Shown here: positions 1,632 through 5,120 of the stretch, one piece after another
Position numbering within the stretch: position 1 is the stretch's first letter
Layout: every line of letters starts with the position of its first letter
Assembly (NCBI GenBank): GCA_035296065.1
Contig: DATHBR010000035.1
Coordinates: 1-11,277, forward strand
DNA: 11,277 bases
Origin: Myxococcaceae bacterium
Lineage (GTDB): Bacteria; Myxococcota; Myxococcia; Myxococcales; Myxococcaceae
Direction: 5' to 3'
The notes under the pieces: generated by a model
Databases searched by the model: none
Told to the model about the DNA's origin: nothing
The model's input: the letters and a program-made list of their open reading frames with translations, nothing else
Program-made: the position numbers and the translations under genes

Positions 1632-4600
1632 TCACAGCGTCAGCCAGTACACCAGCCCGTTCAGGTCTCCCAGGGACAGCGCCACGGAGAAGCCCCGCAT
1701 GGCGGCGCCGGAGAAGGGGTTCTCCCGCACGCCCACGCTCACGCCCACCCGGTCCTGCAGCACGGCGCCGTGCACCTCCAGCCCCCAGTCCAGCCGGCGC
1801 TCGCCGCTCCAGTGCAGCGAGGCCCGGGGCCCCGCTCCCAGGGACACGCCCGGCAGGTGCACCGTGGGCCGCAGCCCCAGCGTGCTGGAGAGCCGATCAT
1901 TGCGGCTCTCGAAGTCCAGCGGCTCCACCTTGGAGAGCAGCGAGAAGCGGGGCGAGAGCCGCAGCGCTGGCTCCACCCACGCCACCGCCACGCCGCCCTG
2001 GGCCGCGTCGAAGGCCACCCGGTAGGGCAGCAGGTGCAGCATCCGCAGCTTCCACTGGCTCGAGCCCGGAGGCGGCGCCTCGGGCAGGCTGGAGGGGTCC
2101 AGCTCGAAGCGCGGCGTGGGGCCGCTGCTCACGTCCCGCCGCGCCAGCAGTTGCCCCGCCGCCAGCCCCAGCCTCACGCCCCGCGCCGCCGCCGCCGCCG
2201 TGGTGCCCTCGGCGGGCTCCTGGCGCAGCTCCAACACGGTGGCGCGATCGATGGCCCGGCGCAGCGTGGTGCCCCACCAGCGGGCCGGATCCTGTAGCGC
2301 CAGGCGCATGTTCGCCTCCTGGCCCTGGAAGCCGTGGGCCTTCAGGCCCGCGAGGAACTCGTCGAAGCCAGGGTCCGCCAGGCACAGCCGCTCTCTGTCC
2401 CCTTCCCTGCACGGCCTCCGGTGCGAGCGCGCCGCCGCCAGCGCCGCGGCCAGCGGGTCTCCCTCGGGCAGCGCAGCGGGCTCCACGGCCCAGGACCAGG
2501 CGGGCTCGGCCAGCAGGGCCTGGGCCTGCTGACGGCTGCCCAGCGCGGTGGCCAGCTCCTCCTGGGCCAGCGCGGTGAGCACGTGCCGGGCCCGCTTCGA
2601 GGAGAGCACCCCCATCCACTCCGCGTTCTCGCGCATCATCATCCCCACGCACCGCTGCGTCTGGGGATGAGAGAGGTCCAGCTCGTCCGAGGGCCCGGGC
2701 CGGCGGGCCGGAGCGGGCCGCCCGGTGAAGTACGGATCCTGCGCCGCGCAGCCCTGCACCGACAGCGAGTGCACCGCGTCGTAGACACCGGCGTAGTAGT
2801 CCAGCTCGCGCAGGGGCCGGTCCAGGAAGCCGGCGAAGTTGCCCAGCTGCGAGCCCGCCAGCGGCGCGAAGCGCGTGGTGACGAACAGGCGCCGCTCCGT
2901 AGCGCGCGGCCGCTGCAGCGCCATCGCCTGCGCGGACAGGCCGTTGAGCGAGGCCGCCAGCTGCTGCAGCGTGGGCACCAGCCCCGTCAGCACGCCAATC
3001 ACCCGTGTCCGGTACGCCAGCAGGCTCAGGTCACCCGGGTGCTCCTCGCCGTCGAACTCCCGCTGCGCGGCCGCGACCTCCGGCTGCAGCAGCCGCTCGT
3101 AGGCCGCCTGGAGCACACGCTCGGAGGGCTCGGGCGACTGGAGCGCGCCCCGGGGCAGCTCGCGCAGCTGGGCGCGGGCCTCTCGCGCCAGCGCGGAGAG
3201 CTTCGGGTCCGGCATGGCCTCGACCCACCGCAGCTGCTCGTCCAGCACGATGTTGGCCAGCTGGTGCGTGGCGGCGCTCAGCCCTCCGCTGTTGCGCAGG
3301 GTGGTCAGGAAGGCCTCGCGCAGCTGCTGCTGCTGCGCCTCACTGATTTCACTGCGCGAGAGCAGATCCAGCTCCCCGGCGAAGAACTCGACGATGGAGG
3401 AGCTCAGCTCCACGCCGTCCCGGAACGCATCCTGCACGCCCAGGCCGTCCGTGCTGATCTGGCTCAGGGGCTCGTCCACGAAGCGGCGGAACTGGCCCCG
3501 CTCATCCATCAGCCGGGCCAGCGAGGTGCCCAGCGACACCAGCTCGTCCACGGACAGCCGCTCGCCCACCTTCTCCGCCTGCACCGGGTCCGACGCCAGG
3601 GGATCCTCTCCCTGCACGCCTCGCAGCTCCCGGGCGCAGCGCTCCAGCAGGCCGGGACTGTTCAGCCCTCCATCGGCCCCTGACAGCCGCCGCACGCACG
3701 AGAGCAGCACGCGCCCGCGCCGCAGCCGCTCGGGAACGGACATCGCGCCGCGGGCGGGGATCTCGGGCAGCCGCACGTCGATGGCGCGGCCCTGCGCCAG
3801 TGTCGCCAGCGCCTCGTGCACTCCGGCGTAGCGCCGGCCCGCGTCCGCCGCCGTCATCAGCAGCGTGCGCGTGGTGCGGTTCCAGTTCATCGCCCGCGCC
3901 GCGCGTCCCAGCTCCGAGTTTCGCGCGGTGGCCACCAGCCCGCTGAGCAGCTGCACGCTGCCGGCGATGCTCGCCCCGTGCTCCACCCGGGCCTTGGCGC
4001 CCGAGGCCGCCGCCGCCTGGAAGCGCCGGAAGTCCGGATCCACGAAGACGTAGGAGACGGGGTTCCACAGGCTGGGCCCCCGCCGGGACTCCACCAGCTC
4101 GATGGCCAGCCCCACCGGCGCGTTGTCGAACACGCCTCCGTCCACATAGGGCCTGCGGCACAGCGTCAGCGGATTGCCAGGCGTGGAGCGCCCCTCGCAG
4201 GTGAGCTGCGTCAGCGGGCGGTTCGCCTCGGGCCCGGGACAGGTGCCCCGCTGCACGCGCTGCTCTGTCGGGCACGAGGCCGCGCAGTCACACAGCTCGC
4301 GCGGGCCAAAGGCCACCGGGAAGGCCGCCGAAGCCAGCACCGCCTGGCTCACCTGGTCCGAGTCGAGCACATACCCGGGAGGCTCCGGATCCGGGCGCTC
4401 TCCCAGGGCGAGCACGCTGGGCGACAGCTCGCCATCGCTCGGCAGCGGCTGGTGGCGCAGCCGCACCCGCCCGCGCTGCGTCACCTCCAGCGCCATGGGC
4501 ACCACGTAGCGCTGAGTCATCGCCGGCAGGCCCTCGATGTGGCGCACCTCGGGCGTCAGCCGCGTCACGGTGATGCCCAGCGGCACGCTGCAGCCGGGCA

Positions 4601-5120
4601 GGAAGCGGCGCGTGGAGTTGGGCGTGAACACCTTCGCGCGCAGCTCCGCGATGACGCGCTCCATCGGAGCGCGCGACAGCAGCCCATCGTCATAGCGGTA
4701 CACGCTGGCGTTCTCGGGCAGCAGGTCATCCAGCCCCACGGGCAGCCAGGTGTCGCGCAGCAGGTTGGAGTCCACGCTGTCATCCGCCGTGGAGTCGGGC
4801 GCCTGGCACCAGAGCGCGGCGGCGAGCAGGGCGTTGATGCTGCCAGCGCTGGCGCCGGTGACGCCCACCAGGTTCGGCCGGAACGAGGGCCCCGCCACCG
4901 GCTGCGAGCGCGAGAGCCGCAGGAAGCGCACCGAGCCCCACGTGAGCCCGGCCTCATAGGCGCCCAGGCTCACCCCTCCGCTGATGGTGAGCGCGATGTC
5001 ATGCGGAGGCGGCGCCTTCTCGGCGGCGCTCGCCCCCCAGGCCAGCAGCCCCGCCAGCACCACCGCCCACCGCGCCCTGTTGCGTACGACAGACCTCCCC
5101 ACGTCTTCCTCCCGCTGCAC
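1632..5120 (-). CDS. Large exported patatin-like phospholipase (about 1156-1162 aa) with a long non-catalytic C-terminal extension.
   Basis: It carries the three patatin hallmarks. The oxyanion/Gly-rich block is ISGGVSLGAYEAG. The nucleophile elbow is G-A-S-A-G (GVTGASAGSINALLAA, Ser at 4848-4850). The catalytic Asp motif is YVDGGVFDNAPVGL (Asp at 4140-4142). The conserved ASAAFP block is also present. The N-terminus is a Sec-type signal peptide (RNRAR-WAVVLAGLLAW-GASA|AE). The track start at 5120 is a GTG. A better start is the GTG at 5100-5102 (V7), preceded by a GGGAGGAAGAC ribosome-binding site (RBS) with a 5-nt spacer. The stop is TGA at 1632-1634. Confidence 0.85.
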   Translation of the reverse strand: MQREEDVGRSVVRNRARWAVVLAGLLAWGASAAEKAPPPHDIALTISGGVSLGAYEAGLTWGSVRFLRLSRSQPVAGPSFRPNLVGVTGASAGSINALLAAALWCQAPDSTADDSVDSNLLRDTWLPVGLDDLLPENASVYRYDDGLLSRAPMERVIAELRAKVFTPNSTRRFLPGCSVPLGITVTRLTPEVRHIEGLPAMTQRYVVPMALEVTQRGRVRLRHQPLPSDGELSPSVLALGERPDPEPPGYVLDSDQVSQAVLASAAFPVAFGPRELCDCAASCPTEQRVQRGTCPGPEANRPLTQLTCEGRSTPGNPLTLCRRPYVDGGVFDNAPVGLAIELVESRRGPSLWNPVSYVFVDPDFRRFQAAAASGAKARVEHGASIAGSVQLLSGLVATARNSELGRAARAMNWNRTTRTLLMTAADAGRRYAGVHEALATLAQGRAIDVRLPEIPARGAMSVPERLRRGRVLLSCVRRLSGADGGLNSPGLLERCARELRGVQGEDPLASDPVQAEKVGERLSVDELVSLGTSLARLMDERGQFRRFVDEPLSQISTDGLGVQDAFRDGVELSSSIVEFFAGELDLLSRSEISEAQQQQLREAFLTTLRNSGGLSAATHQLANIVLDEQLRWVEAMPDPKLSALAREARAQLRELPRGALQSPEPSERVLQAAYERLLQPEVAAAQREFDGEEHPGDLSLLAYRTRVIGVLTGLVPTLQQLAASLNGLSAQAMALQRPRATERRLFVTTRFAPLAGSQLGNFAGFLDRPLRELDYYAGVYDAVHSLSVQGCAAQDPYFTGRPAPARRPGPSDELDLSHPQTQRCVGMMMRENAEWMGVLSSKRARHVLTALAQEELATALGSRQQAQALLAEPAWSWAVEPAALPEGDPLAAALAAARSHRRPCREGDRERLCLADPGFDEFLAGLKAHGFQGQEANMRLALQDPARWWGTTLRRAIDRATVLELRQEPAEGTTAAAAARGVRLGLAAGQLLARRDVSSGPTPRFELDPSSLPEAPPPGSSQWKLRMLHLLPYRVAFDAAQGGVAVAWVEPALRLSPRFSLLSKVEPLDFESRNDRLSSTLGLRPTVHLPGVSLGAGPRASLHWSGERRLDWGLEVHGAVLQDRVGVSVGVRENPFSGAAMRGFSVALSLGDLNGLVYWLTL
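5025..5120 (-). other. Predicted Sec signal peptide of the large patatin-like protein, with cleavage about ASA|AE.
   Basis: There is a positively charged n-region (RSVVRNRAR), a hydrophobic h-region (WAVVLAGLLAW) and a small-residue c-region (GASAAE). This was read directly from the translation with no predictor run. Confidence 0.55.

Follow-up and report, generated by a model that had tools for sequence, protein, structure and literature searches.

A patatin-like enzyme with a long C-terminal extension

The window analysed here (11,277 nucleotides, from a contig of a Myxococcaceae bacterium) carries a gene for a giant patatin-like enzyme in which the catalytic domain makes up less than one third of the protein, as a preliminary description had noted. 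This raises the question of what the remainder of the protein is and where in the cell such an enzyme would act. The open reading frame described before (1632..5120, minus strand) is present in the ORF list, and each of the motifs quoted from it (SGGVSLG, GASAG, ASAAFP, DGG, DYYAGVYDAVHSL and the C-terminal LVYWLTL) was found where it had been placed. The frame can be extended upstream to the GTG at 5120 chosen in that description, which gives a reading of 1162 aa. We consider the GTG at 5102 the likelier start, because a Shine-Dalgarno-like sequence lies at a short distance upstream and because the resulting product of 1156 aa matches the length of two close homologues, P0001 (97% identical) and P0002 (87% identical). 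Full-length homologues have 1050-1170 aa. The GC3 value is 93.5% in the frame of the gene, compared to 70-78% in the long antisense ORFs. The features of the gene are collected in Table 1.

Table 1. Features of the gene and its product, with positions in the window
Feature	Residues	Positions	Strand	Remarks
Whole gene		1632..5102	-	1156 codons plus stop at 1632-1634; based on ORF list, GC3 and homologue lengths
Shine-Dalgarno-like GGAGGA		5107..5112	-	4 nt upstream of GTG 5102; read from the sequence
Putative signal peptide (MGRSVVRNRARWAVVLAGLLAWGASA / AEK)	1-26	5025..5102	-	From hydropathy and equivalent homologue N-termini
Patatin-like alpha/beta catalytic domain	34-355	4038..5003	-	Includes a Cys-rich insertion at 271-315
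Oxyanion block SGGVSLG	41-47	4962..4982	-	Gly-rich; without the usual Arg/Lys
Nucleophile elbow G-A-S-A-G	83-87	4842..4856	-	All five residues invariant (36 sequences)
D-G-G	321-323	4134..4142	-	D321, G322 and G323 invariant; followed by F325-D-N-A-P329
Linker and conserved helix	356-404	3891..4037	-	Low model confidence in the linker
Variable all-helical region	405-735	2898..3890	-	
Most conserved block, ERRLFVTTRFAPLAGSQLGNFAGFLDRPLRELDYYAGVYDAVHSL	736-790	2733..2897	-	Strand, then long helix; DUF3376-like core
Second helical domain	791-994	2121..2732	-	Conserved Cys pairs at 785/818 and at 898/907
C-terminal domain (162 aa)	995-1156	1635..2120	-	Predicted outer-membrane anchor

The catalytic domain belongs to the patatins. 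PF01734 matched over its full model (positions 1-191) with 70.2 bits, against a gathering threshold of 27.7 (E 3.5e-19), and in the 1162-aa reading the match spans exactly residues 44-340, the region previously assigned to patatin. The domain has the patatin alpha/beta fold and the full set of Ser-Asp dyad motifs: the G-x-S-x-G and D-G-[AG] motifs and the N-terminal Gly-rich oxyanion block are represented by GASAG, DGG and SGGVSLG, invariant among 36 sequences (in the oxyanion block G42, G43, S45, L46 and G47). Ser85 is predicted to be the catalytic serine and Asp321 the aspartate of the dyad.

At the N-terminus, a positively charged n-region (with R3, R7, R9 and R11) is accompanied by a hydrophobic core of 12 residues, and A-S-A precedes A27. 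This N-terminus looks like a cleavable Sec signal and not like a lipoprotein signal; no twin-arginine motif was found in the signal region, and there is no lipobox since the N-terminal region contains no cysteine. No further hydrophobic stretch of transmembrane-helix length occurs in the protein (no 19-residue window above KD 1.6). All 35 aligned homologues have N-termini equivalent to this one. Moreover, 14 cysteines are invariant or nearly so across the family alignment, and the pair C99/C171 is retained even in relatives from Sulfurovum and the Gammaproteobacteria. The N-terminal features, the N-termini of the homologues and the conserved cysteines together make the Sec export suggested earlier probable.

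A predicted eight-stranded barrel at the C-terminus

In the AlphaFold2 model of the protein (pLDDT 83.3, pTM 0.82), the C-terminal domain begins with a conserved LDPS(S/T)(I/L)P motif and a short helix, continues with eight antiparallel strands and ends with a helix carrying D-L-N-G-x-x-Y-W-L. The strands lie at residues 1028-1144, in agreement with the beta-strand-like pattern seen before in the last ~140 aa. They are long, are joined by short loops on both sides and close into a barrel, so that the model presents the C-terminal 162 aa as an eight-stranded barrel of the outer-membrane-protein type.

The strands of this barrel are strictly amphipathic. One face is hydrophobic (32% Leu, 26% Val, 10% Phe) and variable (1.77 bits, with 2 of 32 positions conserved to at least 90%). 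The opposite face consists mostly of Gly (22%), Ser (17%), Arg (15%) and Ala (15%), has no Lys (0%) and is the conserved one of the two (1.04 bits, with 10 of 32 positions). The faces differ in conservation (Mann-Whitney p 1.5e-4). Side chains on the hydrophobic face fill ~3000 Å^3, those on the other face ~1600 Å^3, and by a rough estimate the inside of an n=8 barrel has room for the small face only. Composition, conservation and volume of the faces point to a polar-cored, lipid-facing barrel, the reverse of a soluble barrel.

When a profile of the barrel was searched against 1.84 billion representatives, only 158 proteins matched, always at their C-terminus. Nine genuine family matches were scanned, of which eight carry patatin and the ninth (P0256) has no Pfam match; a tenth scanned protein (P0224) was a low-complexity match and is not counted among the nine. 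The fusion of patatin and barrel is family-wide. The C-terminal segment of 169 aa matched no Pfam family at E<=10, models of outer-membrane proteins included. The PDB, searched by sequence and by profile with the full protein and with the profiles of the family and of the barrel, gave nothing meaningful (for the barrel, no match below E 0.58), and a Foldseek search of the barrel against the PDB gave no significant E-value, leaving the ranking alone for use.

Besides these negative Pfam and Foldseek results, two features speak against an outer-membrane barrel. The usual aromatic C-terminal beta-signal is missing from the protein, in which the last strand is followed by the conserved DLNGxxYWL helix; many homologues have a variable tail beyond this strand. 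Versions from myxobacteria contain few aromatic girdle residues. A PagL-like catalytic triad within the barrel was considered and rejected, because distant members do not keep the candidate residues, His1023 and Ser1054.

Distribution and gene neighbourhood

The family comprises ~660 proteins, annotated solely as 'patatin-like phospholipase family protein'. The named taxa that carry it are all diderm and include non-predatory sulfur oxidisers, namely Sulfurovum and sulfur-oxidising Gammaproteobacteria. No conserved neighbours of the gene were found in seven genomes, among them Stigmatella, Citreicoccus, H. minutum, M. stipitatus, Aggregicoccus and a gammaproteobacterial contig, which argues against a dedicated secretion or immunity partner.

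Two patatin-like proteins, MXAN3780 and MXAN4295, have been reported from the outer-membrane fraction of M. xanthus (PMC3222651). We dropped a link to these proteins, because a search seeded with the Pyxidicoccus homologue returned members from M. stipitatus and M. landrumensis and none from M. xanthus. A CapV-like function in anti-phage defence was rejected as well; PADLOC gave no match and the signal peptide speaks against it.

Proposed location and role of the enzyme

We narrowly favour the view that the protein is an exported patatin enzyme of the periplasm, which its C-terminal eight-stranded barrel keeps tethered beneath the outer membrane and which acts in the remodelling or homeostasis of envelope lipids. 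The pre-protein would be exported by Sec and its 26-residue signal peptide cleaved. The N-terminal ~970 residues, comprising the Ser85/Asp321 patatin hydrolase, the DUF3376-like block and the two helical regions, would take up their fold in the periplasm, with the 14 conserved cysteines able to pair into as many as seven disulfides. The BAM machinery would insert the last ~130 residues into the outer membrane as an eight-stranded barrel of the OmpA/OprF/PagL size class. A barrel with an even number of strands has both ends in the periplasm, and the pore of an eight-stranded barrel is too narrow for a polypeptide. With such a barrel as its C-terminal tail, the enzyme is most likely tethered to the inner side of the outer membrane, since with both barrel ends periplasmic and no pore of polypeptide width the catalytic part would stay in the periplasm. 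[quoted passage not shown] Its role would be lipid remodelling or homeostasis, as is now proposed for PlpD, whose patatin domain lies in the periplasm on an outer-membrane barrel anchor and whose loss alters phospholipid levels (PMC11116518). More tentatively, and at just under an even chance, the family may represent a second, evolutionarily independent class of outer-membrane patatins with its own C-terminal eight-stranded barrel, in which the long helical module senses or regulates access to membrane lipids.

A toxin-like or predatory function had also been suggested. A lipase weapon displayed on the surface or released (for prey lysis or as vesicle cargo), with the barrel serving as an autotransporter-like translocator or a vesicle-targeting anchor, seems unlikely to us. 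The barrels known to translocate passengers have 12 or 16 strands, whereas this one has eight with very short loops and would form no autotransporter pore; furthermore, a folded, Cys-rich passenger of ~110 kDa would be an unlikely substrate. An immunity or partner gene is conserved nowhere among the seven genomes, and the presence of the family in non-predatory sulfur oxidisers likewise disfavours such a function. Even PlpD, once called type Vd, retains its patatin domain in the periplasm (PMC11116518).

Export is equally part of another explanation, namely a soluble enzyme in the periplasm or medium whose barrel is an avidin-, lipocalin- or YceI-like module that binds the lipid substrate or product. 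We regard this as quite improbable, as the composition, conservation and volume of the two barrel faces point the other way.

The middle of the protein and its relation to TIGR03607 and DUF3376

The preliminary description had likened the architecture to the TIGR03607 patatin-related family, with DUF3376 as the last ~140 aa. The likeness holds as a distant relation, which sequence comparison supports, and not as membership: TIGR03607 matched with 46.6 bits (E 2.4e-12), aligning residues 87-784 to positions 67-720 of its 732, against a curated cut-off of 262.45 bits. Among the family members, 34 of 36 match at E<=0.001 (best E 2e-13), all below this cut-off. The alignment ends near residue 784, within block 736-790, and ~370 residues, the barrel among them, lie beyond the model. 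For PF11856 (DUF3376; 514 positions in the current Pfam model), no match was obtained with the whole protein at E<=1 or with three pieces covering sub-regions 354-961 and 988-1156 at E<=10, and thus none at the 25-bit threshold C-terminal to patatin; the Pfam scan of these pieces returned noise only (PRCH and acVLRF1). Two gammaproteobacterial relatives, L059 (17.0 bits) and L062 (14.7 bits), matched PF11856 below threshold at model positions ~360-410, which correspond to the mid-protein motif FGAF.D..FR.YDYY.G.YDA in block 736-790. The C-terminus is thus not DUF3376; a DUF3376-like motif sits in the middle of the protein, and the barrel occupies the end. An ordinary TIGR03607/DUF3376 patatin with DUF3376 as its C-terminal domain would agree with the match of the protein across most of the model, with TIGR03607 matches in nearly all family members and with the weak PF11856 matches of two relatives, but it is highly improbable given the low score, the lack of a PF11856 match in the protein and its pieces, the uncovered C-terminal residues and the mid-protein position of the motif. 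Our literature search found no papers on DUF3376 patatins or TIGR03607.

The middle of the protein is mostly helical, as expected from the earlier reading, with helices at 411-729 and 757-991 in the AlphaFold2 model. The part before these helices has two stretches with a pLDDT under 50, namely 358-374 and 394-405. Invariant residues of helix 379-393 are L389 and T392; R394 is also invariant, as is L398 in the next short helix (397-404). Region 405-735 is far shorter in the gammaproteobacterial relatives and missing from the ~700-aa relatives in Sulfurovum. Block 736-790 is 65% identical to distant members, with E736, R744, F745, F756, F759, L760, D761, R765, D768, G772 and Y774 invariant. Internal repeats and mutual homology of the two helical regions were rejected (hhalign probability < 1%). 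Our guess is that regions 405-735 and 791-994 form a spacer, a lid or a regulatory module.

Implications and comparison with known systems

A patatin fused to an eight-stranded outer-membrane barrel is an architecture not described before; a literature search found nothing relevant on eight-stranded outer-membrane barrels with patatin. To our knowledge, the removal and remodelling of phospholipids at the Gram-negative outer membrane is an open problem for which few enzymes are known (OMPLA, PagP, PagL and PlpD). The patatin domain of PlpD, once regarded as secreted, was recently reassigned to the periplasm and to lipid homeostasis (PMC11116518), and an unrelated patatin-barrel fusion with a barrel too small for secretion would independently back this view. 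As a single gene without partners, it would also offer a simpler test system. If the family does form a second, independent class of outer-membrane patatins, patatin-barrel fusions recur as a means of keeping envelope lipids in balance and are not secretion systems, and this family provides a rare case in which a small, C-terminal barrel of OmpA size anchors a periplasmic enzyme of ~110 kDa. The database picture is corrected in that ~660 annotated patatin-like proteins bear a C-terminal barrel that is absent from Pfam.

With TIGR03607/DUF3376 proteins the protein shares a GGVSL-type oxyanion block, a helical region and the motif FGAF.D...R.YD(Y/W)..G..DA. It differs from them by an added helical domain and the C-terminal outer-membrane-type barrel, both outside the model, and by its signal peptide and conserved cysteines.

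Compared to the small eight-stranded outer-membrane barrels (the N-domain of OmpA/OprF, NspA, OmpW, OmpX/Ail, PagL, PagP and CarO), the barrel has no detectable sequence similarity in Pfam and PDB searches. All its loops are minimal, and it ends in a conserved helix and not in a terminal aromatic residue. Its predicted position C-terminal to a large periplasmic enzyme reverses the arrangement of OmpA/OprF. In contrast to PagL, no Ser-His-Glu set is kept family-wide in the barrel.

OMPLA/PldA and EstA combine lipolytic activity with integration in the outer membrane, as is proposed for this protein. In OMPLA/PldA, however, the 12-stranded barrel is itself the enzyme, and both catalytic fold and barrel differ. 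The EstA-type GDSL autotransporters (type Va) use a 12-stranded barrel to export their passenger to the cell surface and also differ in their folds; the protein has eight strands in place of 12 and no PF03797 match, unlike classical autotransporters.

Analogous proteins are PlpD of Pseudomonas aeruginosa and FplA of Fusobacterium nucleatum, patatin-like Omp85 proteins formerly assigned to 'type Vd secretion'. As in PlpD, a patatin enzyme would be combined with an outer-membrane barrel anchor. Unlike PlpD/FplA, the protein has no POTRA or Omp85 match in Pfam, its intervening region being all-helical, and the barrel is unrelated, with eight strands where Omp85 has 16. Enzyme and barrel are separated by ~640 residues of helical domains, and the oxyanion block reads SGGVSLG, compared to GGGxR/KG in PlpD/FplA. 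The patatin-barrel fusion described here appears to be independent of PlpD/FplA and convergent with it.

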